Source: Amphiscolops sp. MND2022
Lineage: Eukaryota
Reading direction: 5' to 3'
NCBI GenBank assembly: GCA_964187785.1
Contig: OZ076413.1
Span: forward strand, 72,354,001-72,418,000
DNA length: 64,000 nucleotides
A program made the translations under genes and the position numbers. The notes beneath the pieces are model-generated. The model had not been told where the DNA came from, made no database searches, and saw only the letters and a program-made list of their open reading frames with translations. Shown here piece by piece: positions 13,280 through 40,621 of this stretch (position 1 is the first letter of the stretch; each line of letters opens with the position of its first letter).

Positions 13280-13293
13280 TTATTAGGAAATAA

Positions 13294-14145: not shown

Positions 14146-14162
14146 TTATATTTAAATAAATA

Positions 14163-14906: not shown

Positions 14907-14963
14907 ATACTTGTAAAATTTGAACTAAATACTTTATAAAATTAAGTTTTTATTTAAAGTTAA

Positions 14964-15486: not shown

Positions 15487-15547
15487 ATTTATTCAGTAAA
15501 AATAAAATCAGTATAAAACTTAAATCCTAATTTTTATTCCTATTTAA

Positions 15548-16778
15548 ATGGAATTATTCTCATTGAAAAATAAATATGCTATGGATAAACCCTATTCATA
15601 AAATTGATTTTATTAAATACTCACCTAGTAGTTTAGCTACAATCAACCATAATAATTCAAATATTTCCATCATCTTCCCAAGAGAAGATGCATATATTTG
15701 TTTACAAAACTCATACGTATCATTAGAATTTGAAGTTCTTAAAAATGATGATACAAGATATGCAGATGGTGATCAAATAAGTTTGGTTAATTTTGGACCC
15801 GTTGCTTTATTTAGTGAAGCTAAGTTAACTACTAGTTCAGGTAAACATTTAGAAAAAGTTGATAATCTACACCCAATTTCATTGATGTATAAACTTTTAA
15901 CATCTAATCAACAAACAAGTCAATTGATGTACGGATTTGAAGAATCACAAGCAACTAGAAGACGAGAACTAACAACAAACAAAACAGAAAAAGGAACCTT
16001 TTTTGTTAGAATTAGGTTGAGTGATATATTTGGATTTGCTGATCAAGAAAAAACAACTTATGGATTGGGTTATACTCTTACTTTAAAACGAAATAATAAT
16101 AACGACCCCATTATAAGGGACAATGGTGTAGATGCTGCAAAAATAAATATAAAAGACATCTCCTGGCATATTCCACACTACACACCATCAATGGAAAACC
16201 AACAACTTGTGATGGATCAAATATTAGACAAAGATCCAACTGAACTGTATTATATTGAACGAGTTGTTTTTAGAAAAGATGTTAACACCAATAACAATTG
16301 GACATTTGAATTAGGTAATAGTGGCGAATCAACACCAACTTTTGTAATTGTTGGCTTTCAAGCTAGAAATGAAATTGATTCACAAACACATGATAATGCA
16401 ATATTTGATCGTTTACCTGTTTCAAATGCTGTTTGTAAAATAGGATCAGAGAAATATCCCGATGATGGAATAGAATGTGATTATGATAGAGACAAATATG
16501 ATCAAGCATACAGTGAAATTGAAAACTTCTATTTGTTAAAAAGTGAAACTAACCTACTCAATCCGTTTATTGATTTGCATAAATTCAGGACAAATTATAA
16601 TTTCTATGTATTTGATTTATCCAAACAAAAAGACCCCATCGGGAGTCAACCTATTAGATTAGAATTCAAATTTAATGCTGCCATTGATGTAGCAGACTAT
16701 ATAGCTTATGCCCTAGTCCTAACACCTAAATTGATAAGTATCAGTAGTGATGGACAAAGGCATTTTGATTTATTATGA
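15548..16778 (+). CDS. Major capsid protein (double jelly-roll, hexon-like)
   Basis: ~410 aa. The likely start ATG 15548 (MELFSLKNKYAMDK) is shifted by an extra C in aaaccct into IHKIDFIKYSP. C-terminus FYVFDLSKQKD...PIRLEFKF...YALVL. Confidence 0.82.
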
Positions 16779-16873
16779 ATAAATATAATTTAAATATATA
16801 ATAATACAGCTTTGCTGATATGATAAATAAATTTATTTTTATAAATAATAATTATAAAATAATATATTTATTT

Positions 16874-19800
16874 TTATAAAACATGTGCTCGATCACTTAT
16901 CAACTTCACAAGTTGTTGATGGGTGAGTGCTTGTTTCCAATACCAAACACTGAAATAAATTTCTTCATCTGTTTTCTTGCTACCGTCAACATTTATAGTT
17001 AAATCTTTATAATACAAACCAATTAATTTCAAACAATATATACAAGGGCAATCACCTTTTTGTGTGTGTTTATCCCATGGTAAACTTTGTATTGGATTTA
17101 TATACAAACGTTTATCGTCAAAAGGATTCAAACACAACTTAGGTTGTTTTTCAACTGTGAGGTTGTGTAAATTAGATCTAATTGATATATTTGTAGAACT
17201 TGATGTTTCTGAATTAAACAATGAATTTTGATATTCTTCACATTTGGGAGCTTTTTGTATTCCTTTTTGTTTCGCTTTTTGAATGTTATTATTAATATTA
17301 TTATAACTAAAAGAATATGACTTTGATCGCAATGCTGTGAAAGTATCTAACACCAAAACTGGACTTGTTTCATTTTTCATTTTTCCTATAACTTTTTTGT
17401 TAATAGGATCATATAATTCATCACTTGGGTGTAATTCACTGAAATCAAATTCATCTTTGTTTTCTTGTAAAAAGTTTATTAGTTCTTGGTGGTTTGTATC
17501 AAAACTCAGAATAAAACTATCAGTATCCATGTAGTGTAGTTGTATGGATTGTTTCCAATATGGTTGTAATTTGTTATAATAAAATTCATACATTAATAGT
17601 TTTGATAGTTCTAAAACTGTAAAACCCAAATAAATTGGTTTATCAAAGACTGTTTTTTCTTTATCAAACTTACACACTAAACTTAGAATAATGATCCATG
17701 ATTCCTTTGAAACTTAACTTGGATTGTCTTTTTATTATTTGATCTATTTGAGAATGATCAATGAATTCTAGATTGGTTCTATCTCTTACATTTTCCATAG
17801 TCTTCCCAAAGAAAGCATTATTCATTAATTTATAAAGATCCTTTTCAAAGTTTGTTTTCGCTACTGTGCGTTTCTGAGTATTATGATCGATATATTTACC
17901 TAACCATGGACTTTGTTTAAACTTATAGATAGTATGTATCTTCGTTACTTTCATCCCTTGGTTAAGATAAAACTTAAACATCCTATAATGTATCATATAT
18001 TTCGATTTATTGGTTACATCACACATAAGTTTTGATGTTGGTTTGTAATTAGGTTGATTTATATTATTCATATAACCTGAGAAAAAGTTTGGATCTGCTT
18101 TTGTTTGATACGGACAAAAAGGAAAGTTTTTTGTTTTTTCTTTAATTTCAGCTGGATATTCTAAATCACATTCTATAAAGAATCCATATTCATTATCATC
18201 AGGTATTTGTAATAACTCTTCTACTAATTGCTCTAGATTGTAATTATCTGTGTAATTACACGGATTAAGAGGTAATATTTCGAATTCGCCAGTAGGAAGA
18301 TATTGACTCATTGCCCATCCATATAGATTATTTGCATCGATATATAAGATTTGTTTATTTTCATCAGATTGCACGTGACGATCTCCCATTACACTTGAAA
18401 TTCCTCCACGGATATTATTTTCAAGTAGTAGTAATAATTCTTCACCGGAGGGCAGCTTCGCTGTATCTTTTATAAAGTCTAACTTTATATTAGTCAACTT
18501 CAATCCTGCTTTCCATGTATAACCAGGTAGACTATAAGAGTACAAAGGATTAATTTTATATTCTCGTGTAGAACTTTCCACAAAGTTTTCAAATACATCA
18601 GCTAATTGAAGAACATCCATTTTTAAGTATAACATTGTTAATTCTCTTCCACTTTCAATTTTATTTTTATCAAATAATTCTTGGGTTCTTTTTATATCAT
18701 CATCTGATGGATAAGATTGTGTTAATGTTGACCAATAATCTTCTTTAGTTAAATTTAATGGTTCCTGAAAGTTATCAAGATTTAAGCATTCATAAGGATA
18801 AGCCAATTTCTTTTTAAATATTTTGTCTTTAAATCCATTTTCATCCATTATTGGGAAACTGTCTAAACTCTTAACTAATTTATCTAAACTACTACTTAGA
18901 AAACGATATGAATCTAAGAATATTAAGCAACCTACTTGAATTGATACATAATTTTCCATTGACTTTGGGATTATTTTTGGTTCATACCCCTTTTCGAAAG
19001 CTTGTATTAAGAGTTCTTGAAATATAAGATGACAATCATACCCAGAAAAGTTATGGAAAAATATAGGAACAAAACTTGATGACTTTTGTTTTACATTTAT
19101 GTTACATATATTATGAGCTGCTCCTCTGTATTTTCCTGTTAGATGATCATGATCTCTAACCTTATCCTCTGTAAAAGGCTCTTCACAAAGCCAACACTCT
19201 TCTGCAAGTTTGAATGATTCTTCTTCTTCAGGAGTTATTTGTAATTCTAACTTTGTTTTAAAATATTCATTTGCTTCTAGTTCTAATTTTAACATTTCCT
19301 TCACAAACCATTCGTTACAATCTGTTCCAAAGTGTGAACTATACTTGTTTCCAAATGTTGAAATTACATAAAAGCCTACTGCAATTGGAATTTGTTTAAA
19401 TAATACTTTGGCATCATTTCCAGGTTGATTAATACATTCAAAATCTGCATATACTCTTATTGGTACAGGAACTTCCATATAATAATCTTCAAACTTTAAC
19501 TGATTCTTCCAACTGAATGTGATATTAGTTGGTTGTTGATTTATACATCTTTCCATATGATCAAGTAGAACCGGTTCTGAACTGAATGCTGTTAAACATC
19601 TTCTACACACCCATCGCATGTGTGAATCTTTATTTATTAAACAATGCAACTTTCTTATTAGACAATAGTGATTTTCATACAATAACAAATCTATTTGTGG
19701 TTGGAAGTAATTTTTGTTAATATGAATTGGTGTTAAAACTGCTCCGGTGAGTTCAAAAACATTTACGTTCAAGTTATTAAGTTTTTCGAACTTGGGAATG

Positions 19801-20696
19801 TCTTTAACTTTCATAGGGAATTCCAATCCTTTCAGGTTAAGTTTATTCATATGAATAACATATTTTGATGTTATATTTTTATTATCCTCAACTGGAAATA
19901 AATATGCTAATATACACCATACAAAACAAAATTGATCATTATTTTTTATATTTATAATTGACTGATTCGTTTTATATTTTGGTGGTAACTCAATATATGA
20001 AGATGCTCGAATATCATTAACTTTATATATTTCTAATATAACTTCTTCTATTTCTTGAAATTGAAAACCTGATCCTTCTAATTGTTCATCATCTAATTTC
20101 TGTATTAATGTGTTATGAGTATCTTGTTGTGTACCGAAGGTGCTTTGCATGTGATTATATATTAAATCTGATTTTATCCATCTTTTAAATACTTCTTCTT
20201 CTCCATTGATTATTTTTGAAAATTTAGCTAGATAACTCAATTGATATTTATATCGGGGAAAATAATTTTTACTAAGTAAGTCATTTATGTTATGTTTAAG
20301 ATTTTCAGTTGGATTTATTTTCAGTTTAATGTATGTGTTTTCATTCACAATTATATTTACTCCATTACCGGAGGGCAGCAAAGCTGTACCGAAATCTGTA
20401 ATACAGCTTCGCTGGCTTTGTATACTGTTTTGTTGACGGTTTTGTAAATGAATTTCACTTTGGAAATGTCTTGTTGTATCAGATATATATTTACTACAAT
20501 CTTCACATCATATTTTATTGATGCGGTTTTTATGTTCATCTGAATTTAAATGAGAACTTTTATCTGAGATAGGCATATATAAATTACATTTTTTACAATA
20601 ATATTGATTTAATTTTTCAAGATGTTTTACTGATTTTAGATGATCAGACTTGAAAGCTTTTTTATAATTTAAATTACAAATACTACAATTCTCCAT
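16874..20696 (-). CDS. polB: Protein-primed family B DNA polymerase (frameshifted), with N-terminal zinc fingers and an endonuclease-VII-like insert
   Basis: YADFEC (Exo I), FHNFSGYD (Exo II), YIDANNLYG (Pol A), KLMNNAFFGKT (Pol B), YMDTDS (Pol C). The CWLC...VRDHDHLTGKYRGAAHNICN insert is present. Frameshift at ~17675 and further shifts at 20380-20510. Confidence 0.93.
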
Positions 20697-20879
20697 TTCT
20701 ATTTATTAAAGAAAAAATAGTTTAATTAAAAATTTTTCAATTATAATTTTTATAAAAAATTGGTGAAAAATATTTTAATTTTGTGGTGGTAAGGTATTAA
20801 AGCTTGCCACAGATTTGTATGATAAATACAGCTTTGCTGGCATCGCATATTTCATTTAAGAAAATTTTTATAATCTGTA

Positions 20880-21290
20880 ATCAGAAACTCAAGACCTTTC
20901 CAATGATGTATCACACATGGCAATATCTTAAACTTTTATAATCTCTACATGTTTAAGGGTTTCAGGTTTGAGATGGTATAGTTTCAGTTGTGGGTACCCA
21001 ATCATGAAAATATTCAAAATCTGTGATCTCCAACTCAAGACCTTTCCAATGATGTATCATACACTGTGATATGTTGAACTTTTATAATCTCTACATGTTC
21101 AAGGGTTTCAGGTTTTTCGAAGTTTCAGATAGTATACATTTGTACTAGGTTTTCGAATTGTATCTAGATAGATAGCCCTTGTCGAGACCTTTTCAATGGT
21201 ATATTATACTTTGTTGTAACTCAAATATTCGTTGAGTTATGGCTTTTTTCCTGACCTATTAGTAATCTCTACATGTTTAAGAGTGAAAGT
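20880..21290 (+). repeat. Three degenerate ~150-bp direct repeats in the Polinton right subterminal region
   Basis: AAGACCTTTCCAATGATGTATCA and TAATCTCTACATGTT recur near 20890, 21037 and 21185. Confidence 0.75.
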
Positions 21291-21464
21291 CCGAATGGAA
21301 AAAGTCTCTTTGCCAGTTTCATTTCTTCGGCCATGCTGTTTGCTGTGACTGTAGAGAGAAAAGTGAAAAATGAAATTTTGGTGCATTCCGAATGCACCTC
21401 AAGCATTAGAGTGCACAGGCAAGCCTTATTTGCTCAAAGCGCAAGATAGTGCTTTCAATATCTC

Positions 21465-21812
21465 GGATTCCACGACCATACCTTTAACCGTGCAAAATTG
21501 GCAAATTACGTCATTTGTCCCGGATTCCACGGATTTAGTCGTGGATTCCAGTAACAAATGCTTAGCTGTACGAACTGTCGGCATGCAGCGGTGTCCCGGA
21601 TTCCACAAAAACGTAAGTTTTGCGAAATGAACCAATCAGATTGCAGAAATCATAAATTTCCTGGATTCCACGACCTTATGCTTGACGCGATACGCGGCAT
21701 CTCTTCTTGAATTAAATTCAACTGTCGTGGAATCCAAGACACGCTTAACATCAAAGAGAAGTTTTGTCCTGGATTCCACGACTTTTCTCAATTTTCGTGT
21801 CCCGGATTCCAC
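21465..21812. repeat. Array of eight GGATTCCA(C) motifs
   Basis: Copies at ~21465, 21522, 21543, 21598, 21663, 21727 (inverted), 21771 and 21804. Confidence 0.8.
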
Positions 21813-22154
21813 GAAAACAGCAAAATAGCTTGCCTGTGCACTGTAATGAGGTCAGACGACCATCTGGTGCGTGAAATTTTGTTTGAAATTTATATGGTGG
21901 TAATTTTTCCAACAGTTGTGGTGTCCACTTGTGCACACCATTGAATTTATCAATAATGAAAAATGTGTTCATCATTTTTATATGTAATTTTTCAATGGGT
22001 AAAAATGAAGAAAAAAACTCGTTTTCAATTTGGACACTTGTGTTTTCTACTTGAACGCATTTGGTAAGTATTCATTTTTTCTTCACGATGTGGTAATAAT
22101 TCTATTATACGTCGATGGAGGTTAGTTCAATTTTGGTTTGTGACAAATACTTCT

Positions 22155-22320
22155 TTGGAAAATTTGTGCATCGATTTTTATTTTGTTAAATTTTTAGTTG
22201 CGAAAAAAGGCTAGTTTTTAGATGGTTTGATTGGTATTTTGTGAAAAAAGATTAATTTTTTAATGATTTTACGAGCTTAAATTTTTTTTATATATTAGGA
22301 ACGGGAATTCGATTACTACT
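22155..22320 (-). repeat. Polinton right TIR
   Basis: Ends in GATTACTACT, followed immediately by the TSD ATCATA. Confidence 0.92.
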
Positions 22321-23900: not shown

Positions 23901-25752
23901 TTTTTTCTGCAACTGGAGTGTGCTTACTTTACTAGCAGCAAGCAGTGTTAACGAACCCTCAGCTTGAAATTTCAGAGCTGTTCATCTTTGGAAACGGTGA
24001 GCTATTCAGCCTGATCTTAGTCTCATTCTTTTCTCAATTTCAACAACAACTTGATCGACCGGAACCACCAAATTTCTCTCTTTTTGGAGACCACTCTTCT
24101 GAACAACACTTTTGGGCAGTTTCCGATTAACATTTCATTGAATGTCTCCATTAGTGTTGCGGTTCCTCGTCAAAAAATTTTGTCCAATAATTAGATCGCC
24201 AATCATCGCCTAAGGGCGGCTTTTCTCAAGACTGGGGTTGAATTGTGAACTTCTGATCTGAAACGACTGCTCCGGTTTCTCTTGCTAACAAATTTTTTCT
24301 TCGATGTACTCAATTAGTTTGAACACAAATTTTCAAAGACTGTGAATTTTCAAACAGTGACATGGAAATGATCATGCTATAGTTATATTTAAAATAGTTG
24401 AATACCAATTGAAGGCTTTTATTGTTTGTTGCTGATTTTTTGTGTAGATATTGATAAATGTTTACAGCTCAACATTGCCGAGCTCATCGTTTTTCATGAT
24501 ATTTTGTTAGTAAACACTAGTCTCGGGGTAGAGAGTCTCATAAATGAGAGCCTCGGAAAATGGTGAAAACGCCATGCAGCCAATTGCCTTTTAGTCTCGT
24601 TTTTCGGATCAGTCTCAAATTGTAAAGCAGTGACTATGGTGGGAATTTCTATCAAATGTATGCACGCCAATTAATTGCACAGGGGATGATATTCTTTGGC
24701 CTACCAACGTACCAATAAAATAGTGAAAGTATTCATTCGACTGTTAAGCTTACTGTAAGTATATTTCAATAAAAGCAAAACCCATGAAAGGTCGCATCGA
24801 GTCAAAAATGGCCGGCCGTGTACAGACAAAAGCGCCCGAATGCAAAACGTCTCAATACTTTTTGATTTGATTTCACAACCTCTAATTAATCGTAATTGAA
24901 GGTGTTCCAATACAAGATTAACTCACTGGTAATTCCAGATTTCACATTCTCGCACCTAACAAATGTCAATTGAAAATTACTTAAACTGCTAATTTTGGCA
25001 TTTCTGAACAAACTATATCAATTTTTTAATAAATAAATTTGTCAATAAACTGGTTTGAGATGAAATACTGATAATTATTTTATTGGAGCGAGGAACTTGA
25101 AATTGGTTTTGAAGAAGAGTCAACAAATCTTTTGTAGTCTTTGATTGGGGCGCTTTTGACTGCGTATTTTGGGCGCGTTTGTGTGGGGCGCCTTCGGACA
25201 GGGATAACAAATTCACGAAGATTACTACTGTAACAGTCGTCTTTTTAATATGTTCAATTTGTATCTCTTCGAATGCTAGGAGCGACTGTTAGGGAGTTAT
25301 TTGGTGCTACGTAATATTTTGAATATTTACTTTTTGGTCACTGTGTGGTACACCTTGAGTAAAGAAAAACTTTATTGCTTTTAGAAAAGAACTTTAATTA
25401 TTATATTTATCTTGATAGCAGATAGAATGAAAAACAACAAATAAATACAGTATAAATTACTAACATATTTTTGGGCAAAATGATGGATGAAAATCAGCAA
25501 CTGATCTGTATTAGAGAAAATTTGCTTACTGAGCAAATTAGGTAAGTTCTCGTTTATTGTAAAAAAAAACGAGACGAGGAGGGAAATGATGATTAATGTC
25601 TAGGTACCAGATGACAAAGACGTTTGGGAAATATGTTGAGTAATATCTCGGTTAACTGTTGAATCACTATGAGCGATTAAATGTATAAATGTATATACTA
25701 GAAGAAACAAACTAAAATGAAAACTGCAGGCATAAATTTAACAGCGCAGCTT

Positions 25753-25920
25753 AGCAACGGTGCATTGATGAAGCAAGATTGAGCAAAAATTTTACAACAT
25801 AGCAACGGCGCCTTGATAAAGCAAAAATGAGCAAAAATTTTAGAACATAGCAACAGCGCCTTGATAAAGCAAAAATGAGCAAAAATTTTACAACATAGCA
25901 ACGGCGCCTTGATAAAATAA
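25753..25920. repeat. 48-bp minisatellite (~3.5 copies)
   Basis: AGCAACGGCGCCTTGATAAAGCAAAAATGAGCAAAAATTTTACAACAT in tandem, with no spacers. Confidence 0.9.
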
Positions 25921-25954
25921 TACACAATCCTTTTTAAAGAGATGATTCATTGAA

Positions 25955-26199
25955 TAAGCTGTTTTGCAAAAGTGCCTAGTCATTTCCTGTCTTGTACGAG
26001 GAATGCTTTGTCATATTACTCCCGGAAATGTACGTTTGCGTCCCGCAAATGAGGATCACAGGTCCATGAGCTCATGGAGAGACTTCAGAAGGGGGTCGCA
26101 CCTGCGACACGTTCGTAGTCCTTGCTCTCGTCGGTGTACGCCGGCCAGGTCACAACAGCGATAGACTTCTAGTAGTTCGTGGGTAAGAAGAATACGTTT
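25955..26199 (-). repeat. 3' LTR (the part shared with the 5' copy)
   Basis: Matches 40377-40621 with 8 substitutions in 245 bp by manual comparison. Confidence 0.85.
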
Positions 26200-26411
26200 C
26201 GTTGGGTTACCAGGGGCAGGTATTTACTAAGTGCTTGTGGGACTGAGGGGTTTTTGTCAGGGTGTAGCAAGTGTAACAAGGACTTCACGTGGTCATTGAT
26301 GGTATCACTGGAAGCTGTAGGGAGACAATGAATGACGTCAAACAGTAGCTGCTTCGGGGCCATGAATTCATCAAGAATCAAGGGCATTTTCTTAAAATGG
26401 TAAAAAACCAT
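26056..26411 (-). CDS. J-domain (DnaJ/Hsp40-like) accessory protein with Cys-rich C-terminus, one frameshift near 26200
   Basis: LFDVIHCLPTASSDTINDHVKSLLHLLHPDKNPSVPQALSKYLPLVTQ / KRILLTHELLEVYRCCDLAG...TCRRCDPLL*. It has the HPD motif and J-domain helix spacing. Confidence 0.75.
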
Positions 26412-26416
26412 ATTCT

Positions 26417-26812
26417 TTAATGCGGGACAAATCGTTGTGTGGACGTAATATTTGTGAGGGCCGTTACGTCCTCAGACCATGAAAACGTTCGTTTTAAAAG
26501 TTCCTCGTTTACTTCATTGAGTGTATTGACACGGGCGCGAAGCGACTGTATTTGGTCTTTCAGGTCAGCGTTGAGCTGCTCGAGTGACTTGACGTCTTGT
26601 TGGCGAGAAGCGAGTTGTTCCTCCACGTCTTCCAGACGTTGACATAACTGGCGTGCAGATGTCATTTCGGCATGGACAACGTGAACATAATGGTCACCAT
26701 CTATTTGGCACTGGATCTCGAAGTCCTCAGTATCGGGGTGCACTCTAGAGGGCACGGGTTCACACAGGCAATTTTCGGTAGGTTTGTCCACTTGCGCCAC
26801 AGCATCAATCAT
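26417..26812 (-). CDS. Accessory ORF with leucine-zipper-like coiled coil (131 aa), intact only in unit 1
   Basis: Heptads LEDVEEQLASRQQDVKSLEQLNADLKDQIQSLRARVNTLNEVNEELL. Its start overlaps the upstream ORF stop (ATGA). Copies 2 and 3 carry a 5-nt deletion. Confidence 0.65.
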   Translation of the reverse strand: MIDAVAQVDKPTENCLCEPVPSRVHPDTEDFEIQCQIDGDHYVHVVHAEMTSARQLCQRLEDVEEQLASRQQDVKSLEQLNADLKDQIQSLRARVNTLNEVNEELLKRTFSWSEDVTALTNITSTQRFVPH

Positions 26813-27120
26813 GGCGGGCGCTGTTTGGGTGGGATTTTCATGGGTGGAAGGGGGCGGTAAGTGAATATCGGTGGTAGGCCTTGTGAAATTACGGCGGGAC
26901 GAATCCGCGTCCAGACGCTGAAGTACAGCGGTCCCGCTATGCGAGTTGACTCGCAGGACCCGGTAGTCGTCATCGTGGAGAATGCGGACCGTATCAAACC
27001 TGGTAATCTTGGATACACGGCCAGAACTCGTGTATACGGGAACTCCGGCAGGGCGCTTTGCAGGGAACCTGAAAAAAAATGGGCGTTATAACGTTCAAAG
27101 ATATAAAAATATAGAAACAT
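26809..27120 (-). CDS. Accessory ORF of unknown function (103 aa, Pro-rich C-terminus)
   Basis: Intact in unit 1, coupled to the next ORF by an ATGA overlap. A possible acceptor TTTTTTTCAG lies near its start. Confidence 0.5.
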   Translation of the reverse strand: MFLYFYIFERYNAHFFSGSLQSALPEFPYTRVLAVYPRLPGLIRSAFSTMTTTGSCESTRIAGPLYFSVWTRIRPAVISQGLPPIFTYRPLPPMKIPPKQRPP

Positions 27121-30100
27121 CCAGAATACCTTTACAATTTGAACTTAGGGCACGTAGTTACATTATTCTCAGGTGAAGTGCGATTTTCAATTGTTTTTTT
27201 TAAAATTACAATGGTGAGATGATGATCATTGAGGGGACACGCTAACGTGTACAAGTACAGGGTTCCAAAAAGGAACAGGTACAGTGATGTACCAGTGGGG
27301 GAACACGGAAACGTGCTAAAAGGGGTCCACTATTAAGCGGAACTAGTACGAAACGTACGTTAGAGAGGGGCACATAACATGCACTTGATGGGGCACAAAA
27401 ATGCGTTGATTATACAATGTAAGTAGAGGGCAAACACTTTGCAGTCTATGTAGTAGACTCTGTGTATAAGGGAGCGGTGATATCTGGATGAACACGTAGG
27501 GGGACAGGTGGTTGAGATCAAGAGGCATATTTTGAACGTCCGGATTGGTTTCATGGTTTTAGAGGCCAAAGGCTTAAGTGCCGTAAATTCACTGAGGTTC
27601 AGTTCGAGAAATGCTGACGCGTCGTCAGTGGCCGTTGATGTGGAAAGATTATGTGAAGAAAACGTCCTGTCGAGGTTTTGAAGAATTTGTGGGGGTGTAA
27701 AAACAACGTTTTCCATTGACGACGGAAAAGAGTGAAACTGATAGTAAAAGTCAACAACGAAAGGGTTATGGACACAGTAGAGAAAAGTACGGCTCTACGG
27801 AAGGGCAAGTAAGAAGCAAGAGCTTTCGAAGTTGCTGGTGGGACGGAGGAATAATATTCGGCAATCGGTCGTGTCAACTTGTCAACGGATTCCGTGGACA
27901 TCCGTTGCACATCGGGTAATTTCGCCAACTCCATGCGGACGCTGTTTAAAATGGACTGGCGGGCTTCACCAACTGAGTAAACCGGGAATAAATGATTGAC
28001 AGTAGGCACACGACGGAAAATTTGTTCTAACGATGGCGTTAGGGCAACAGTAGCATAACAGGGGTCTGGATTGGATTCGCAGAAATCCATGTCAGGGGCT
28101 AGAACCAGGTCGCCTTGATTCAGCGAGAGAACGCTGGAACAGCTCGGACGAATAACACAAGCCTGACAGTGAATGGTGGAAACAGACACGCCGTGCTGAC
28201 GGCTGTCATTCTTGATCCTTAAAAAGGGGTCGCGCGATATGACATGGTAGAGGCCATCTGCCAGGTAGAAGGCTTGAGGGGCTTGAGGGAAGTAACACAG
28301 ACTTCACCAGACAGTTTGGCAAAGCAGGGATGTCATGATTATATAGGAGGGAGCCCAAACACAGGAGTGTTTCATCGGTCGTTGTTGAGAACCCTTTGAG
28401 ACACAATTTGATCCGGTTATTGTGTATGTAACAATGACTTCACGTGGTCATTGATGGTATCACTGGAAGCTGTAGGGAGACAATGAATGACGTCAAACAG
28501 TAGCTGCTTCGGGGCCATGAATTCATCAAGAATCAAGGGCATTTTCTCGAAATGGTAAAAAACCATATTCTTTAATGCGGGACAAATCGTTGTGTGGACG
28601 TAATATTTGTGAGGGCCGTTACGTCCTCAGACCATGAAAACGTTCGTTTTAAAAGTTCCTCGTTTACTTCATTGAGTGTATTGAGACGGGCGCGAAGCGA
28701 CTGTATTTGGTCTTTCAGGTCAGCGTTGAGCTGCTCGAGTGACTTGACGTCTTGTTGGCGAGAAGCGAGTTGTTCCTCCACGTCTTCCAGACGTTGACAT
28801 AACTGGCGTGCAGATGTCATTTCGGACAACGTGAACATAATGGTCACCATCTATTTGGCACTGGATCTCGAAGTCCTCAGTATCGGGGTGCACTCTAGGG
28901 GGCACGGGTTCACACAGGCAATTTTCGGTAGGTTCGTCCACTTGCGCCACAGCATCAATCATGGCGGGCGCTGTTTGGGTGGGATTTTCATGGGTGGAAG
29001 GGGGCGGTAAGTGGATATCGGTGGTAGGCCTTGTGAAATTACGGCGGGACGAATCCGCGTCCAGACGCTGAAGTACAGCGGTCCCGCTAGGCGAGTTGAC
29101 TCGCAGGACCCAGTAGTCGTCATCGTGGAGAATGCGGACCGTATCAAACCTGGTAATCTTGGATACACGGCCAGAACTCGTGTATACGGGAACTCCGGCA
29201 GGGCGCTTTGCAGGAAACCTGAAAAAAATGGGCGTTATAACGTTCAAAGATATAAAAATATAGAAACATCCAGAATACCTTTACAATTTGAACTTAGGGC
29301 ACGTAGTTACATTATTCTCAAGTGAAGTGCGATTTTCAATTTTTTAAATTACAATGGTGAGATGATGATCATTGAGGGGACACGCCAACGTGTACAAGTA
29401 CAGGGTTCCAAAAAGGAACAGGTACAGTGATGTACCAGTGGGGGAACACGGAAACGTGCTAAAAGGGGTCCACTATTAAGCGGAACTAGTACGAAACGTA
29501 CGTTAGAGAGGGGCACATAACATGCACTTGATGGGGCACAAAAATGCGTTGATTATACAATGTAAGTAGAGGGCAAACACTTTGCAGTCTATGTAGTAGA
29601 CTCTGTGTATAAGGGAGCGGTGATATCTGGATAAACACGTAGGGGGACAGGTGGTTGAGATCAAGAGGCATATTTTGAACGTCCGGATTGATGTTTCATG
29701 GTTTTAGAGGCCAAAGGCTTAAGTGCCGTAAATTCACTGAGGTTCAGTTCGAGAAATGCTGACGCGTCGTCAGTGGCCGTTGATGTGGAAAGATTATGTG
29801 AAGAAAACGTCCTGTCGAGGTTTTGAAGAATTTGTGGGGGTGTAAAAACAACGTTTTCCATTGACGACGGAAAAGAGTGAAACTGATAGTAAAAGTCAAC
29901 AACGAAAGGGTTATGGACACAGTAGAGAAAAGTACGGCTCTACGGAAGGGCAAGTAAGAAGCAAGAGCTTTCGAAGTTGCTGGTGGGATGGAGGAATAAT
30001 ATTCGGCAATCGGTCGTGTCAACTTGTCAACGGATTCGGTGGACATCCGTTGCACATCGGGTAATTTCGCCAACTCCATGCGGACGCTGTTTAAAATGGA

Positions 30101-31789
30101 CTGGCGGGCTTCACCAACTGAGTAAACCGGGAATAAATGATTGACAGTAGGCACACGACGGAAAATTTGTTCTAACGATGGCGTTAGGGCAACAGTAGCA
30201 TAACAGGGGTCTGGATTGGATTCGCAGAAATCCATGTCAGGGGCTAGAACCAGGTCGCCTTGATTCAGCGAGAGAACGCTGGAACAGCTCGGACGAATAA
30301 CACAAGCCTGACAGTGAATGGTGGAAACAGACACGCCGTGCTGACGGCTGTCATTCTTGATCCTTAAAAAGGGGTCGCGCGATATGACATGGTAGAGGCC
30401 ATCTGCCAGGTAGAAGGCTTGAGGGGCTTGAGGGAAGTAACACAGACTTCACCAGACAGTTTGGCAAAGCAGGGATGTCATGATTATATAGGAGGGAGCC
30501 CAAACACAGGAGTGTTTCATCGGTCGTTGTTGAGAACCCTTTGAGACACAATTTGATCCGGTTATTGTGTATGTAACAAGGACTTCACGTGGTCATTGAT
30601 GGTATCACTGGAAGCTGTAGGGAGACAATGAATGACGTCAAACAGTAGCTGCTTCGGGGCCATGAATTCATCAAGAATCAAGGGCATTTTCTTGAAATGG
30701 TAAAAAACCATATTCTTTAATGCGGGACAAATCGTTGTGTGGACGTAATATTTGTGAGGGCCGTTACGTCCTCAGACCATGAAAACGTTCGTTTTAAAAG
30801 TTCCTCGTTTACTTCATTGAGTGTATTGAGACGGGCGCGAAGCGACTGTATTTGGTCTTTCAGGTCAGCGTTGAGCTGCTCGAGTGACTTGACGTCTTGT
30901 TGGCGAGAAGCGAGTTGTTCCTCCACGTCTTCCAGACGTTGACATAACTGGCGTGCAGATGTCATTTCGGACAACGTGAACATAATGGTCACCATCTATT
31001 TGGCACTGGATCTCGAAGTCCTCAGTATCGGGGTGCACTCTAGAGGGCACGGGTTCACACAGGCAATTTTCGGTAGGTTCGTCCACTTGCGCCACAGCAT
31101 CAATCATGGCGGGCGCTGTTTGGGTGGGATTTTCATGGGTGGAAGGGGGCGGTAAGTGGATATCGGTGGTAGGCCTTGTGAAATTACGGCGGGACGAATC
31201 CGCGTCCAGACGCTGAAGTACAGCGGTCCCGCTAGGCGAGTTGACTCGCAGGACCCGGTAGTCGTCATCGTGGAGAATGCGGACCGTATCAAACCTGGTA
31301 ATCTTGGATACACGGCCAGAACTCCGGCAGGGCGCTTTGCAGGAAGCCTGAAAAAAATGGGCGTTATAACGTTCAAAGATATAAAAATATAGAAACATCC
31401 AGAATACCTTTACAATTTGAACTTAGGGCACGTAGTTACATTATTCTCAAGTGAAGTGCGATTTTCAATTTTTTTAATTACAATGGTGAGATGATGATCA
31501 TTGAGGGGACACGCTAACGTGTACAAGTACAGGGTTCCAAAAAGGAACAGGTACAGTGATGTACCAGTGGGGGAACACGGAAACGTGCTAAAAGGGGTCC
31601 ACTATTAAGCGGAACTAGTACGAAACGTACGTTAGAGAGGGGCACATAACATGCACTTGATGGGGCACAAAAATGCGTTGATTATACAATGTAAGTAGAG
31701 GGCAAACACTTTGCAGTCTATGTAGTAGACTCTGTGTATAAGGGAGCGGTGATATCTGGATAAACACGTAGGGGGACAGGTGGTTGAGA

Positions 31790-34021
31790 TCAAGAGGCAT
31801 ATTTTGAACGTCCGGATTGATGTTTCATGGTTTTAGAGGCCAAAGGCTTAAGTGCCGTAAATTCACTGAGGTTCAGTTCGAGAAATGCTGACGCGTCGTC
31901 AGTGGCCGTTGATGTGGAAAGATTATGTGAAGAAAACGTCCTGTCGAGGTTTTGAAGAATTTGTGGGGGTGTAAAAACAACGTTTTCCATTGACGACGGA
32001 AAAGAGTGAAACTGATAGTAAAAGTCAACAACGAAAGGGTTATGGACACAGTAGAGAAAAGTACGGCTCTACGGAAGGGCAAGTAAGAAGCAAGAGCTTT
32101 CGAAGTTGCTGGTGGGATGGAGGAATAATATTCGGCAATCGGTCGTGTCAACTTGTCAACGGATTCGGTGGACATCCGTTGCACATCGGGTAATTTCGCC
32201 AACTCCATGCGGACGCTGTTTAAAATGGACTGGCGGGCTTCACCAACTGAGTAAACCGGGAATAAATGATTGACAGTAGGCACACGACGGAAAATTTGTT
32301 CTAACGATGGCGTTAGGGCAACAGTAGCATAACAGGGGTCTGGATTGGATTCGCAGAAATCCATGTCAGGGGCTAGAACCAGGTCGCCTTGATTCAGCGA
32401 GAGAACGCTGGAACAGCTCGGACGAATAACACAAGCCTGACAGTGAATGGTGGAAACAGACACGCCGTGCTGACGGCTGTCATTCTTGATCCTTAAAAAG
32501 GGGTCGCGCGATATGACATGGTAGAGGCCATCTGCCAGGTAGAAGGCTTGAGGGGCTTGAGGGAAGTAACACAGACTTCACCAGACAGTTTCGCAAAGCA
32601 GGGATTTCATGATTCTATAGGGGGGAGCCCAAACACAGGAGTGTTTCATCGGTCGTTGTTGAGAACCCTTTGAGACACAATTTGATCCGGTTATTACCTG
32701 AACATTGTTGGAGGGTGGAACTGTCCAGTTCAGCATAGCGTGTGTTATCAGTGGAAACAGCGAGGAACGGCTTCGAAAAGGTAAAGATGGAAGCAGTTTT
32801 GTTATCTCCGTTTGGTTGGTACAATGGTATTGCCTTGTAGATAGCGAATGTGGACGATCGAGAGTTCATTGGAATTCCCAAGACTACTGAAATACCACTC
32901 GGGATTAGGGCAATCTCTAAAACCAACTGAATTTCATAGTAGATAGCTTCAGGTCCAGGCTGTATAGCCGGTGACAGTTTGGTGCCGCGGCGGACTTCAT
33001 CCTCGGATAAATCTTTTACAATGGCAGCTATTTCGGCGGGGAGGAGGAATTGCGGCGTGATGTGACCACCGGCGAGAGAAGAAATTGTCGAGAATAAGTT
33101 GATTTTGTACGCGTAAAAAGCAGCACGGTATGCCTTGATGTTGGTATACAGCGATCCCAAGTCCGATACGAGGCTTCTTATGTCCTGATGGAACATAAAA
33201 TGTTGCGCCGGTGTCATAAGACATGCTTTGTACTGAATCAGTTGTCCTTTTATATGGTTGATCCGATCGGTTAAATTGTGAAGATGCTTGCTCACCGCAT
33301 CTCGAATTGTTTTCTTGTGTTTTCTTCACTTCATTTCCCAGCAGAAAGAAGTTCTCATCGTTGCGTGATTGCACACGACGTAGTGTTTCGATCGTGGCCT
33401 TTTTGTGTGCCAAAAGGTGTTCCACATCCCTAGCGGGGGCACTTATCATCACAGAGACTGAAAATTGATAGGGCCGTACATGCGGCATCCTTCACGGGGT
33501 CACCAAGATTTAGACCCGCACCTGCTGCAACAGCGCCAACAAAACGCCGATTCCGTGTCATGTGTTCCGGGCCCCTTTGATAAAATTTAGGGAGGAACGA
33601 TTGGGTTATATCGGACAATTCTAATTGTTCCTTCGTAGCTTCTCTAATTTACGTTTGTATAACAGTGATCCGCTTAGACAACTGTTCCAATAACAGACCA
33701 TAAATCTCGTTTATATTCGAGAATTTACACTACTTTTGTTGGTACATACCGCCAATACCAACAACACGATGCCTTGCTGCCAGTAACAGCTGTTTGGCAT
33801 CCGTGAGATTCACTTCTGGGAGCTTTGGGAAAGGTATAAAGACGCGAACTTTACTCTCACTCTCTGAGGTCACTGCCTGGTGTTTGAAGAGAAAGGATGC
33901 ACCTTTCTTGAAGACAGGGATTGGGGGTGCATCATTGACGTGGGTCGAGAAGTGGGTTACGGGGGTGCAGGCTGGAAGGTCGTAGAGCAGAAAGAAGGAT
34001 AGCAACGCTCGAAAGTCGATC
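31790..34021 (-). pseudogene. env: Envelope class I fusion glycoprotein (baculovirus F/errantivirus type), frameshifted
   Basis: Signal-like LLSFFLLY, furin site RNRR|FVGAVAAGAGL (33544/33543), heptad region, SL..GHITPQFLLP, Cys-rich domain, and C-terminal TM AVLFSTVSITLSLLTFTISFTLF. Confidence 0.85.
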
Positions 34022-34258
34022 CTAAAAGAAGACTACAGTGAAAATTCGGGACGCAGATGGAATTAGAGTATAGATAGCATTTAATATGACTGGCTTTGTT
34101 TGCTATCAGGGGAATTAAACTGCGTCAAATCCGGTGGTAGTTTAGCTTGTCATAAGGGTTGTGCCTTCCGCTGCGCAGCAGTGTTATCTCTGAGTTGACG
34201 ACGAGGTTGAACAGACGTGCCCGGGGGTGTGAGTGAGCGGGAAGCGCGTTCAACTTCT

Positions 34259-37200
34259 TCACGGAACCAAGCTTGTGATCGGGCCGGGGATAGTGATATG
34301 ACTCCGGGGAGGACACTGGGATTCTTCCGGAGACTCCATGGGTCGAGGTCCACTAGGGGGTGTTAGTGAACAACGATGCAGTGGTCCCATTGGCGTGCCG
34401 TTGTTCGAGGGTACTGGTCGTGTCGACGACGGGGTGAGTGGTGATGAGCTTGAGGGAGCGGAGAAGGGTAAGGTAGGAGTTGATGCTACACCGGAACTGG
34501 GTCCACCTGACGACGGATAGCTGGCCGCCGGATGGTGCAACGAGGCAGTGTAGTGTTCACAGCCTTGATCGTGGTCTATTGTAGGCGGATTCTGAGTCGG
34601 AGGGGATTCCGCCCCGAGAAATGGTGTGTTTAGGTGACTTACGTTGCGTGTTGGAACGTTAGAGGTAGGTGGAGGTTCACGGAATAGTTTGAGGCGATCA
34701 TAATGAACGACAAGTCCTTTCATGGTTTTCAACTCCTGTATTTTGAATGTGATGTCGTCAATACGCTTCAAAATGTTATATGGGCCTCGCCAAGGACTGA
34801 AGGTTTTCGGAGATTTCCCTGGAAGGACAACAGGATTGTGCAGTGGAACTTTTTGACCTTCATTGTACAGAGGACTGTGCACCTTCCGGTTATAAATGGC
34901 ATTTCGACGTTTTTGATTGGAATTTAATGCGGTACGAGCTAGATCGTAAACTTTCAGGAAGGCTTGCTGTCTTTCATAGACGTAATTGTGATGGCTATCG
35001 GATCGATTGATGGCTATCGTTGGTTTTTCGATAAAGGTAGAGGTCCCATGAAATCGATACCGATGTGATGGAAGGGATAGCTGGCATGCCATTCGATCAA
35101 GGAATGTCGATGGTGTTTCGGAGGGTGATTACGTTTTTGACATTGTTCACATCGACTAACGAACAAACGAACGTCATCTTGGAATCCTGGCCAATAAAAG
35201 CGTTGACGAACTTTTTCAGTGACTTTAAAGCTACCCAGATGACCTCCGGTTGAAGAAGAGTGTAACGAAGTGAGAAGTGATTGGACCATAGAGACATGTA
35301 TCAATTGTTGCAAGACGTGCATGTTGGTTTTGAGTGTGAATTGACGACACAAAATGTTATTAGAAAGCACCAAACTTTCAAACCCATTCGCCAACTGCCA
35401 GAGCTTCCGCGGTTGTCCCTGGAGTTCGGAATTGCCAGGGGGCTTCCCGCGCGATACACAAGTTATCAAAAGCTTCAAATGCGGGTCTTCGCGCTGAGCT
35501 CGTTCTAAGTCAGTCAAGGAATGTTGCTCGTTCAACATCTTTTTTCCCTTGAGTGTTGTATCTGAATTATCAGAAGTGCCCGTCACATTTGAAGCTTGAG
35601 TTTGCATTTCGTTCTGTTGGGAGTCCAGCAAGAAAACAATGATCTGGATTGTTGAGGATCGAAAAACATCGTTGATGATGGCCTTCAGTTTGTTCCAATC
35701 AAGCCTGTCTAACCCACAACCTACACGGGGAAGACTAATATTTGTTATCCCATTTGTCTCTGCATGACTTCTCAATGCTTCGAGTGAAGTCCGTAGAGCT
35801 GTGTAGGTCGGTTTATGGTAGTAGCGAGCTTTTGTGATCAAATGGTAAACGAAACGACCGGGATCAGAGACCCATTGAGGCTATAAGACCATTTTGTCTA
35901 TTGCTTCTTTGTCAGGATACGTTGAAGGAAACGTTTGAAGTCAGCGGAGATACAGTGGGCTATTGAGTCCTTGCTTTGCAGGATGTCACCATAAACCTCA
36001 TTGTACTCGCAACTCCGTGCTGCTTTCGGCTGTGGTCGGTTAGGCCACTCTGAGTCGTTGTCGACTTCCACTGAACACTTTTTGAGCTTGAGGAGATGGC
36101 TTTTAGGCCTCTAAGAGGAGTCCTTGAAAGACCGTCCGCATGGCCAATTGTGTTTCCGCGGCGATGAATTACCTCATAGTTGAATGCTGCCAACTTTTCG
36201 AGCCAACGAGCTGTGAGAGAATCAGGGTCTTTAAAGTTATGGAGCCACTGTAAGGCTCGATGGTCAGTCACAATGAGAAAGTTTTGTCCCAGAAGATAGT
36301 GTTAAGTGGCGGGTAAAATGAACAACTGCCAAAAGTTCCCTTTTTGTGGCTGAGTATCTGGTTTGGGCCTTCGTGAGGGCTTTCGATGCGTAACAGATGG
36401 CCCGTTCTAGACCGTTCTGAACTAGGGCCAATACAGCTCCCATAGCTGTCAAACTCGCGTCCGTATACAGAATAAAGGGCTCCTTCATCGGAGGAAAAAC
36501 CAATATAGGTGTTGAAGTGAGTTTGTGTTTTGAAGCGTCAAAAGACTCTTGAGCTTCAGGAGTCCACTGGAATTCGGTCGCTGAGTCACTTCCTGCGTGA
36601 ATTGGTCTGGCAATCGCGGCGAAGTCCTTCTCGTACCGTCTATAGTAGGAGCAAAGTCCCAAGAAGGACTTGACTTTTGTGGGGTTATTAGGAACTGGAA
36701 AGGCTTTGACTGCTCTCACCTTGACCGGGTCAGCCTCGAGGCCATCTTTGCTGATGATGTGTCCGAGGAACGGAACACGAGTTCGGAAAAACTCACATTT
36801 GGTGGGGTTAATCTTTAAATTAGCGTTGCGAAACCGTTCCAAGACTGCTCTGAGGCGTTCAAGGTGCTCTTCAGCAGTTCGGGCAAAAATGATGCAGTCA
36901 TCTAAATAAGGGACTGTAATCTTCCAGGTGAGACCAATAAGGACACATTCCAATAAACTCTGGAATGTATTGGGGCTGCCGGTAAGTCCCATCGGCATCC
37001 GAAGCCATTTGTAGGATCCGAACGGTGTGCTGAAAGCAGTTAAATCTTGGCTTTGGACATCCATCGGTAACTGGTAGAAACCCCACGAAATGTCAATCGT
37101 CGTGAATAAACTACTTCCTTCTAAGGTATCGAAGATTTCTTCGATCGAAGGAATCGGCCAACAGGACTTGATTGTCTGATTATTTAGTTGTCGGTAGTCA

Positions 37201-38350
37201 ATCACCAGCCGGAGCTTGCCATTTTTCTTTGGAACAAGCATGGCGGGAGCGCTGTACGGGCTATGGCACGGGGTGATGAGCTCCTTTTCTAGGAAAGCGT
37301 CGATTTTTTTCGTAAGTCCTGTTTCAAATGAAGCGGCATTCTGCGATTTGGAAGTTTAATCGGACGAGACCCAGGATAGACATCTATTTTATGTGACGTA
37401 ACATCACACTTGCCAATATCCCCTTCGTTCTTTGAGAAAACATCCGAAAGTTCATCGATCAGTGCGCTGAATTGTGACTTGATTGGGGCATAAAGTTCGT
37501 GATCAATGGATCCCTTCACTAAATTTAGGTCGTATTTTTCATCAACCATATCCGTCATTTTCGTGTCATTTGCGAATCCCGTTTGGGCAGTTCCAATGTT
37601 CTGTATACGCTCCCTGGAAATAACTTCTGAACTTCCAAGTGTTGTATGTTTATGAACTGTAATAGGCGAGTCCCCAGAATTCTCGATAACAAGCGGGATA
37701 GTATCCTCCGTTAGTGTGAACAACATGTCCGGTGCTGTTAAATCTTTGCCATTGAACTTCTGATGAGGTTCAAACGATCCTACTAGCTCAACTGGGGATC
37801 GCTTCCAGTCAGGGATACAATCTGGGACGATCATTGAATGTCCTGCCGGAATACTGACTGTATGCCGTGCGATTACGCGGAATACTTGATCAAATGGGAT
37901 TTTGAATGTTTTGTGGTATAATGGTACCGATGAACCATGGGCAATCTGGAGCGTTTTCTTCGAGAACAAGGGATCACATTTATGATCTTCTAAAAAGTCC
38001 AGTCCAATTAGTCAATCTGCTTCCGATTTTGCCAAACCGTGAATTTGGTGATGGAAAATCTTTGAACCTATTTGGACAGGTAGGATTACGGTGCCACGGG
38101 TGTCTATAGGTAGTTGGTTAGCGGTTTTCAGGTGTGTGGTCGACGGGGTTAGTTGAAGTGCTCTTTGGGTCTGTAGGATGTCGAAAGTTTCGCTGCTAAG
38201 ACAAGAGACACTTGCTTCACTATCGCACACTGCTTCTATGGGGTGATCGAAAATGTGTAATTTCACAAAAACACTTCGATGGTCGACCACAGAGTTTAAC
38301 GTTTGCGTTGGTGGGTCTTTTGAAGTACCGTTGTCTGCTCGTCGACCCAT
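34259..38350 (-). pseudogene. pol: pol: protease, RT, RNase H, macrodomain, integrase (catalytic core deleted)
   Basis: PR VCDSEAS; RT LVIDYR, TAFST, MPMGL, YLDD; RH LYTDAS, RELLAV, TDHRAL; IN H..GHLG..RFYWPG..C..C and IDFMGPL. Several frameshifts. Confidence 0.92.
35630..36000 (-). CDS. TARG1/OARD1-like macrodomain inside pol
   Basis: GDIL..KDSIAHCISADFK...YHLITKARYYHKPTY..L..SLEAL.SH...NGITNISLPRVGCGLDRLDW closely follows TARG1 motifs (SLAHCIS, LITK, PRIGCGLDRL). Confidence 0.88.
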
Positions 38351-39590
38351 GGGCGTAGACGATTTCAGTTGAAAATTTCGGCGTTTTGACTACAGTCACT
38401 CGGCCACATTTGAAGCATGCTTTACATTTCTTTGAGTCATGGTTCGTTCTTTTACAGTGTTTGCATGGGGCTCTGGTGTCAACATTTCGGCCATTCGAGC
38501 GGTTTCCCGCACCATTCTGAGTGTGTCGTTTGTGATTTTGGTTTTTATGGTAGTTGTTAGTCTTCTTGTTCTCAAATCGACAAGCTCGACCTCTTTGGGA
38601 GTCAGTACTGCTCGCGCGCGACGCCGACTCGTGATTGGGAGTAGCACTTCGCTGCCGATTGTTTCTCTGCTCCGGTTTTGGCAATGCATTTCGAATGCCT
38701 TCAGTCAGGGTGCTGACCAAATCCTCCATGATTTGATGATTGGGCTGTTCAGGATGCTCACGGGAAATCCTGTTTACACTGCTTCAGCCGTAGTGTGACT
38801 AGAGGAGGGAGCGCATTTCTCGATTTCGAGAAACGAATTCAGCTCCATGGCTAAGGCCAAAGCATCGTCTGCAGTGACTGGTTTCGACTTGCGCAGCTCC
38901 CAGCGAAGGGTGGAATCACTCGAACCTTCGATGAAGCTGGTCAAAACAATTTGTTCGATTAGGTGGGGAAAGGCGCGATAAGCGCGACGCGCTAGAGTGC
39001 GAATGTCGCAAAGGAAGGCCGAAATATCTTGATTCGGTTGCTGGCGGGCTGCTTTCAATCGAGCTTTAAGGATATCGACGTTGGTAGTGTAATTTTACCG
39101 GAAGGCATCAACCAGCATAGTGAAATCAGTTTGTTGCGCGGCTGACACCGTAGTGTAAAAGTGCAACGCGTTGGCACGCAGACGAAGAGCAAAATAGTGA
39201 GGCCGATTATCGTGGGTAGTCGAATACCACCCAGAGAGTAATGCGGCTGTATTGAATTGCTGTAAATAGTCTTCAAGTCGCCTAAACCTGTGAAGCTTTC
39301 CGGCATCAAGCAAGAATGAAGGGGAGTTACGTAGGGCGTGCCACCCTGACCTAACGGGGTCGGGAAGGGTGTAACCGGTGTCACTCCCGGCGCTGTAGAC
39401 GAAGTGCTCGCAGTTGAAGAGGATGCCGTAGTCATAACAGGGGTGCTAGCTGAGCTAGAGGTAGTTGTTCACGTAGCAGGAGTGCTGGGGGTGGCTGCGG
39501 TTGGGCCACTGGCAGTAGCTGTGGTCGTAGTGGCCGCTGTTGGGCTGGTTGACAAGTTTTATTCGATTTTTTTTTCTGAAATTATGCACT
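38351..39590 (-). pseudogene. gag: gag (Thr/Ser-rich N-terminus, capsid domain, two zinc knuckles)
   Basis: PESFTG..D.EDYLQQF..AALLSGW, F..LR..AL..Y, F.EG...LRWEL and CKHCKRTNHDSKKCKACFKCGR. Frameshifted. Confidence 0.85.
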
Positions 39591-39593: not shown

Positions 39594-40286
39594 TCAATGG
39601 TGGGGCTGAGTAAGCGTATTGGCATTCATTAGCATTAGCGGATCAGGTATGTAGTTTGCCAGGAATTCCATGTACGCTTTCCAAAGTTGAGCCAAAAGGG
39701 GGTACAAAATACGTTCGATTAACGGGACGTGGGTGAAAATCAGTTGAACGTTTTTGAAATTTCGCGGAACTGAGCCGATTTGTTGGTGGAAATGCTGTTG
39801 GAAATGTAAAGTTTCAAGGCGGTAGTGTAAGACTAGTTGGCTCGGTGTTAGCAAGGGTTCGGGGCGAAAAAGACGTGGAATTTTATGAAAACGTGCTTGA
39901 CAAAAATAACAGGGAATTAAAAGCTCTTGGGGTGCTGTGCGAGGTGAAGATGATAGCGGGAAACTGAAAAGATACATTGCGCAAAGCTATTTCGTTGACA
40001 ATTTTTCGATGGCCTGTGAGCAAATTGTTCGAGTAAGATGGACTTCAAAATCTACTCCGACTAATGCAATTATCACAAACAGTAGCGCGAGTACGACCAT
40101 GAAAAGAAATGTAGCAAATAAACAGGAGGTCGAAGGTGTTTGCGGAAAAAAATCGTTGTAGTCTCTACGAGGGTGGGGGTGATCTTGGGGGACGCGGAAC
40201 AACGTAAACGGGTGGGTTTCTAGAAGCGGAATAGCGTGCCGACATAATAAAACAATATGGAGCAATCTTCTAGTTAATATATTCAT
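39594..40286 (-). CDS. Two extra ORFs upstream of gag (99 aa with a TM helix; 127 aa with CxxC/His)
   Basis: ORFs 39987..40286 (LFATFLFMVVLALLFVIIALVGV) and 39594..39977 (CYFCQARFH...LHYRLETLH) lie between the PBS and gag on the element strand. Confidence 0.5.
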
Positions 40287-40356
40287 ATATTCAAATAAAA
40301 TTATAATAAGTATTTTTTTCTATGTACTCACGATTTGATAAAAAAAACTTAGGGGT

Positions 40357-40376: not shown

Positions 40377-40621
40377 TAAGCTGTTTTGCAAAAGTGCCTA
40401 GTCATTTCCTGTCTTGTACGAGGATTGCTTTGTCATATTACTCCCGGAAATGTAGGTTTGCGTCCCGCAAATGAGGATCACAGGTCGATGAGCTCATGGA
40501 GAGACTTCAGAAGGGGGTCGCACCTGCGACACGTTCGTAGTCCTTGCTCTCGTCGGTGTACTCCGGCCAAGTCACAACAGCGATAGACTTCCAGTAGTTC
40601 GTGGTTAAGTAGAATACGTTT
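40377..40621 (-). repeat. 5' LTR (apparently truncated at its outer end)
   Basis: Direct repeat of 25955-26199. No TG start, and flanked by scrambled filler sequence. Confidence 0.8.

Follow-up and report, generated by a model that had tools for sequence, protein, structure and literature searches.

A J-domain gene between env and the 3' LTR of Ty3/Gypsy elements in Amphiscolops sp., with a broken copy in a 64-kb window

Retroviruses and retrotransposons rely on host chaperones, and HIV nef and MMTV sag are each the last gene before the element's 3' end and are expressed by splicing. Viral J proteins that use host Hsp70, namely those of polyomaviruses (the T antigens), molluscum contagiosum virus and phage RB43, are described in passages of PMC3486835. 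Metazoan env-carrying Ty3/Gypsy elements, the errantiviruses, are surveyed in PMC13524379, and additional lineage-specific genes, often spliced, are described for CERV of Cer1 (PMC10309623), the rotifer ORF3s (PMC5408684) and sORF1/sORF2 of the MDG1 group (PMC11952523).

We analyzed a window of 64,000 nucleotides from Amphiscolops sp. MND2022, in which an HPDKN motif and a group of cysteines make up the C-terminal third, now broken, of a fourth gene of about 330-370 codons (here ORF-J) in an env-bearing Ty3/Gypsy element. As far as the available parts of PMC13524379 go, the carrier element fits the env-bearing Gypsy elements surveyed there, sharing the order LTR-PBS-gag-pol-env, an F-type or class III env and recent multi-copy insertions. 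What sets it apart from them is the J-domain gene downstream of env, a pair of leader ORFs and a pol gene that includes a Macro-like domain; the term 'DnaJ' was absent from the searched text and seven supplements of that source. ORF-J resembles CERV, the rotifer ORF3s and the MDG1-group sORFs as an additional lineage-specific gene, but it adds to env and does not replace it, and no J-domain is described for these genes in the passages and term searches covered. 'DnaJ' was also not found by term search in the available text of PMC5408684, PMC11071296, PMC11952523 and PMC6338049, nor 'retrotranspos' in that of PMC10410713, nor a splicing passage in that of PMC3383448. A retroelement-encoded J-domain was not found in the literature searched; subscription journals largely, and Repbase, lay outside its scope, and an earlier mention is possible.

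To judge from its sequence, the element in the window is a decayed Ty3/Gypsy element. Reading downward from 40.6 to 25.2 kb, one meets gag, then protease, RT and RNase H, next a Macro-like domain, the integrase and finally an env-like gene, each of them fragmented (Table 1); the pol order is PR-RT-RH-IN, that of Ty3/Gypsy. Paired LTRs (650-800 nt), primer site and purine tract are present in sister copies, while the window copy lacks the 5' LTR and primer site. In the C4 sister copy the paired LTRs are 92.6% identical over 651 aligned nt, a primer-site-like TGG motif follows the 5' LTR, a purine tract precedes the 3' LTR, and the 5' LTR maps onto the window at 26013-25229. From the tRNA assignment, we take the primer site to be of the Leu type, as in errantiviruses.

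Table 1. Positions in the window of the features of the decayed element and of ORF-J.
Feature	Position	Strand	Remarks
3' LTR, true, about 790 nt	25229..26015	-	three 48-nt tandem units at 25752-25916
Spacer between ORF-J stop and LTR, 40 nt, purine-rich tract	26016..26055	-	
ORF-J last piece, other frame: helix III-IV, CC-x14-CxxC tail	26056..26223	-	stop codon 26058-26056
ORF-J middle piece: J helices I-II, HPD (26264-26256), helix III start	26169..26471	-	Met 26411 internal
Tandem triplication, about 2.14-kb unit (3' env + 5' ORF-J to just ahead of HPD)	26272..32695	-	units 98-99% identical
ORF-J 5' part: predicted SH3-like barrel, CxC linker, coiled coil	26417..27068	-	frame breaks before J-domain
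Splice-acceptor-like site (T run, AG, then G), predicted; conserved 5' edge of ORF-J	27068..27085	-	
env-like gene, fragmented	31873..34032	-	piece 32618-33325 matches Baculo_F, 26.8 vs cut-off 24.1 bits
pol, fragmented: protease, RT, RNase H, Macro-like domain (E 0.007), integrase	34259..38389	-	
gag, fragmented	38220..39468	-	
Two small leader ORFs upstream of gag (membrane-helix ORF; CxxC ORF)	39594..40319	-	sister subfamilies too
245-nt duplicate: ORF-J 3' end, purine tract, about 60 nt of LTR, joined to leader	40377..40621	-	not 5' LTR

The first-pass annotation had placed the C-terminal half of the J protein inside a terminal repeat, with a U3 overlap of the nef/sag type. The 245-nt 'terminal repeat' is in fact a rearrangement that runs directly into the leader, the genuine 5' LTR and primer site having been lost, and the real 3' LTR starts 40 nt beyond the stop codon; the observation that KRILLNHELLEVYRCC is open also in the copy at 40377-40621 was correct. 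Among 20 loci taken from the genome matches described below, 17 have mappable paired LTRs, and the stop codon lies at least 32 nt ahead of the LTR in all of them (32-53 nt in 14; 83, 129 and 269 nt in three). Two of the 20 loci have no paired repeat, and at the decayed locus L082 a read-through tail enters a 92-nt repeat by 5 nt. ORF-J is thus like nef and sag as the last gene ahead of the 3' end and in its predicted expression by splicing, but unlike them it has no U3 overlap, and no sequence or fold likeness to them was seen. Duplications of the ORF-J end also occur elsewhere: on C12, a tandem array of about 17 units with a 1.28-kb period (54.715-54.736 Mb) contains the ORF-J 3' end, LTR pieces and some leader, and three tandem ORF copies represent another such duplication.

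Although Baculo_F exceeded its cut-off in the env piece of the window, it did so in just one of four whole envs. A furin-type site, a hydrophobic peptide and a membrane helix are visible in env, for which no PDB match was found; a Pfam Tax match on its C-terminal piece (E = 0.005) was rejected, as this piece belongs to env. The two leader ORFs upstream of gag occur in all subfamilies examined (L085:3024-3702 and equivalents): one of about 76-90 aa has a PPxY-like motif preceding a membrane helix, and the other, of about 120-140 aa, has a CxxC motif and is duplicated in two subfamilies. Neither has a Pfam match. In being small, upstream of gag and in one case equipped with a membrane helix, they recall the MDG1-group sORFs as described in passages of PMC11952523. 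The Macro-like domain (Pfam E = 0.007) occupies 35014-35880 of the window, with RNase H on one side and integrase on the other; a similar region was seen in sister loci and is absent from the second J-carrying lineage described below.

The HPDKN motif and the cysteine cluster (RCC...CRRC) reported by the first-pass annotation are both present, on the minus strand in two different frames separated by a frameshift: the frame 26169-26471 reads ...TINDHVKSLLHLLHPDKNP..., and the frame 26056-26223 reads ...LLEVYRCC...CRRCDP.... The J-domain recognized there is real, and the anatomy drawn around it is wrong. The proposed size of about 118 aa relied on the Met at 26411, but this Met lies within a longer ORF that opens with a 222-codon frame (26417-27085). 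On C3 there is a natural copy (93% identity to the window) in which a single unbroken frame of 334 codons unites the 222-codon frame with the J and Cys pieces. The window copy is accordingly broken at two places, ahead of the J-domain and within helix III.

In a genome search with the last 120 residues of ORF-J, 150 candidates were scored and 117 of them matched, many with frames that stay open for 332-397 codons and identities of 28-47%; the motifs, recurring in 117 matches and under purifying selection, are beyond chance. The 20 loci were spread over identity bands, with long open frames favored, and env is followed directly by ORF-J in all of them (ORF-J identity 28-45%). Four of the 20 have stop-free gag, pol, env and ORF-J frames together with LTRs 99.7-99.9% identical, which indicates recent insertion of the clade. 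Starting instead from RT (hits at 70% identity or more, n = 44), an ORF-J match was found within 12 kb downstream in 36 hits and within 45 kb in 39; four of the five RT hits without ORF-J were fetched, and in these the likeness to the element ends within pol or env. Relatives in public collections numbered 9, 80 and 35, nearly all from ENA. Some are identical to copies here, and others, only 25-70% identical to the nearest fetched locus, are likely from other hosts. A far-diverged ORF-J (23-25% identity), seen at C3:399997 (L162) and in the protein P0075, shares the Cys tail but has a helix II nearer the canonical form; it adjoins a weak env C-terminal match and forms the deepest branch in the clade.

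The 5' edge of ORF-J carries a splice-acceptor-like site, a T run followed by AG and G and always within an Arg codon, in the window, in the C3 copy and in 18 of 19 loci examined (14 by scan, L071 and L073 separately, L072 by near identity; L064 is frameshifted there). No conserved Met was found at the start of ORF-J among the loci compared, and two subfamilies in the alignment do not share the Met at 26411. The motif AAT/GTAAGT occurs 194-242 nt upstream of the primer site in four mutually unalignable LTR types (shuffle chance 0.02-0.04 each, for a motif chosen after the data were seen), and this AT/GT donor-like motif is absent from the window's subfamily. Splicing from AAT/GTAAGT would add AU to the G of the acceptor, creating a start codon. 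A comparable arrangement, in which env is spliced from an AU dinucleotide, is described for the Drosophila springer subclade in a passage of PMC12992720. On these sequence features, the ORF-J product is likely made from spliced RNA, and a short isoform may arise from the internal Met.

The three-part fold of the ORF-J product is predicted from an AlphaFold model (26 sequences; mean pLDDT 76.5, whole-model pTM only 0.37), with a beta barrel at residues 16-76, a disordered linker with CxC, a single helix at 131-233 and a J-domain at 248-322. The J helices lie at 248-253, 261-275, 285-302 and 304-322 (pLDDT 82-92), and the four-helix fold of J-domain proteins (PF00226) is seen both in the predicted model and in profile matches. 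J-domains ranked first in Foldseek (2ctp, rmsd 1.3 A over 67 columns, with E-values of only 2e-3) and in VIA-align (ERdj5, Z 8.2, rmsd 2.7 A, 74 aligned), and the ORF-J profile placed J-domains on top of the PDB sequences (DNAJC5, E = 1.6e-10). Pfam DnaJ was matched at E <= 0.01 by 19 of the 26 ORF-J sequences (best 5e-16). The 72-aa piece of the window matches it as well (E = 9.6e-5), but its 22.9 bits fall below the cut-off of 27.8; its subfamily scored 25.0-27.1 bits, just below, and sister copies 33.6-46.6 in the genome scan.

The HPD, with helices II and III on either side, is kept in the window and in 21 of the 26 aligned sequences; the five without it are two decayed genomic copies and three database proteins of unstated condition. 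In the 12 residues before HPD, 25 of the 26 ORF-J sequences have 1-3 Lys/Arg (one in the window's subfamily, three in some other subfamilies), as against 2-5 in 13 host J-domains. Behind the J-domain, tail position 1 is C in 16 and H in nine of the 26 sequences, the next position is C in 23, and the CxxC cysteines are kept in 26 and 22. This [C/H]C-x14-CxxC tail is a predicted metal site, as the C/H exchange is compatible with metal binding. Its CC occupies the place of the YD-x-Y-G end of helix IV in host J-domains, on which a metal-type tail was not found. These results support the first-pass proposal that the retroelement encodes a J-domain accessory protein in which HPD is conserved and a Cys tail follows.

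Searched alone, the barrel matched Spt5/NusG KOW best (Z 7.8, rmsd 2.5, 57 aligned), with BAH, Tudor and SH3 within 1-1.5 Z units. As modeled, it is a common small barrel that names no client, and in the alignment it is missing from the divergent P0075. A likeness to HTLV capsid was rejected, being found only in weak PDB profile rows (E >= 0.08); the HTLV capsid domain is helical and the barrel model all beta. In the ESM Atlas the best scores (0.76 and 0.80) were to unnamed clusters and are leads only. Assignment to type I DnaJ/DNAJA was also rejected, since the J-domain is C-terminal, there is no G/F region, and a single [C/H]C-x14-CxxC is present, not CxxCxGxG repeats.

Selection was estimated by Nei-Gojobori dN/dS for 14 ORF-J pairs. 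In the eight pairs with dS 0.18-2.8, dN/dS was 0.11-0.19, comparable to env (0.09-0.17), with constraint on both the barrel and the J part. Four near-identical pairs gave 0.40-0.97 on just 13-20 changes each, and two pairs were saturated. In one pair the barrel is identical and the J part has dS 1.8, which suggests that 3' ends have been exchanged between subfamilies. The position, length, conservation, purifying selection and HPD of ORF-J are all observed.

A genome scan with PF00226, in which 150 of 248 candidates were scored, revealed another repeated J family. All six loci fetched (C5:54.003-54.014 Mb, L133-L134, and five more) are Ty3/Gypsy elements with LTRs of about 530 nt, paired in five of the six stretches. 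The RT of this second lineage is 49% identical to that of the window, and its env matches Monjiviricetes_fusion (class III-type), unlike the env class of the window. Between env and LTR it carries two tandem genes of about 240 aa, each with a coiled coil and a C-terminal J-domain (the second partly masked in one locus), a Met shortly after an acceptor-like site, and an N-terminus different from and shorter than that of ORF-J. These paralogues are 28-31% identical to each other, score 46.7-64.2 bits against Pfam DnaJ (cut-off 27.8) and keep 2-4 helix II basics. In a J-domain tree with 13 host J-domains, each lineage is supported (100/97 and 96/86), their union only at 57/38, and the coiled-coil similarity between their J genes (E 1e-5 to 1e-10) may be generic; the J genes may have had one origin or two. 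The ORF-J clade sits on a long branch in this tree, and no close donor was found among the 13 host J genes compared. One J gene seen in the genome is of the cysteine-string type, which makes an animal host likely. A third Gypsy family at a similar RT distance, env-less and very high-copy (C10:8.248-8.263 Mb, L154-L155; a 1,610-aa pol and 3.2-kb LTRs 99.5% identical), gave no match to either env or J gene in four of four loci.

As far as passages of PMC3486835 and PMC4836724 describe them, viral type III J proteins (polyomavirus T antigens, molluscum contagiosum, phage RB43 Rki) resemble ORF-J in joining an HPD J-domain to virus-specific domains; giant-virus DnaJ proteins are grouped with them. 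Use of host Hsp70 is a further likely resemblance, and ORF-J probably functions as they do. Unlike them, it carries its J-domain C-terminally after a barrel and coiled coil and resides in a reverse-transcribing element. The small-t analogy drawn earlier fails on domain order and Cys pattern, since polyomavirus small t has an N-terminal J-domain with HPDKGG and CxCxxC motifs, whereas ORF-J has HPDKN/HPDKT and the [C/H]C-x14-CxxC tail.

With moderate confidence, we read the window as holding a broken copy of a conserved gene between env and LTR whose product is likely a dedicated co-chaperone bringing host Hsc70 to one client. The non-J part would select the client and the J-domain would trigger Hsp70 on it, a division of labor extrapolated from the type III J proteins described in passages of PMC3486835. 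The barrel would bind the client, the coiled coil would give self-association, and the J-domain would stimulate host Hsp70; Hsp70 hijacking is plausible on this analysis. Our best guess for the client would be the element's own capsid or RNA-protein particle, at assembly or uncoating, because env is present in both J-carrying lineages, and the single lineage examined that lacks env also lacks a J gene (two lineages with, one without). The low number of basic residues in helix II speaks against a strong co-chaperone, and the scores of the window's subfamily, just under the Pfam cut-off, weigh against this reading.

ORF-J could instead be a nuclear regulator of element RNA (transcription or export of unspliced RNA), CERV- or Rev/Tas-like, with the barrel binding RNA or polymerase and Hsp70 merely remodeling the complex. 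This would suit the KOW proteins at the top of the barrel matches and the spliced-type 3' position, CERV being a spliced accessory protein required for export (PMC10309623). We regard it as unlikely, as Tudor, BAH and SH3 match the barrel within about 1 Z unit, the N-terminus in the second lineage is different and shorter, and P0075 aligns without a barrel. Somewhat more doubtful is a decoy J-domain, whose HPD would dock Hsp70 or compete with host J proteins, stimulate poorly and damp a stress, defence or silencing pathway. The loss of helix II basics while HPD is kept, the long branch and the additional metal-type tail all agree with a decoy, but some subfamilies retain three basics and the second-lineage J-domains keep 2-4 and score high. 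A captured host DnaJ fragment without a role, which the twice broken and partly triplicated window copy might suggest, is refuted by selection (dN/dS 0.11-0.19) and is contradicted by the long open frames at 28-45% identity and the missing donor among the 13 host genes. Hardly credible, too, is the first-pass version of a small-t-like protein of about 118 aa overlapping U3: the Met at 26411 and the inclusion of the 3' half in the 245-nt repeat would allow it, but at every one of the 17 mappable loci the ORF ends ahead of the LTR, that Met is not conserved in two subfamilies and the upstream barrel is under selection.

Within a single genome, then, two Gypsy lineages that carry env maintain a J-domain gene of their own under selection. 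A wider reading, which we put forward only tentatively, is that infectious invertebrate retroelements share an accessory module, a coiled-coil and J gene placed after env, which was gained once or twice and moved between Gypsy lineages with unrelated env classes; it would act as a dedicated Hsp70 co-chaperone for particle assembly or entry and would be the first case of a chaperone gene carried by a reverse-transcribing element. A dedicated J protein would point to a step of the element that requires Hsp70, and the isolated domains suit standard chaperone assays. The J gene beside leader ORFs and a Macro-like domain suggests that invertebrate Gypsy elements can match complex retroviruses in gene richness.

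The window also contains a Polinton/Maverick-like element at 7852-22318, with terminal inverted repeats of about 170 nt (92%), GC 26-29%, an A32-type ATPase, an rve integrase and a double jelly-roll capsid; from motif labels, one long ORF is presumably polymerase-like and another protease-like. Just before it, at 6945-7328 (+), lies what we take to be a probable host exon, glucosamine-fructose-6-phosphate aminotransferase-like, and the insertions in the window may sit within introns.
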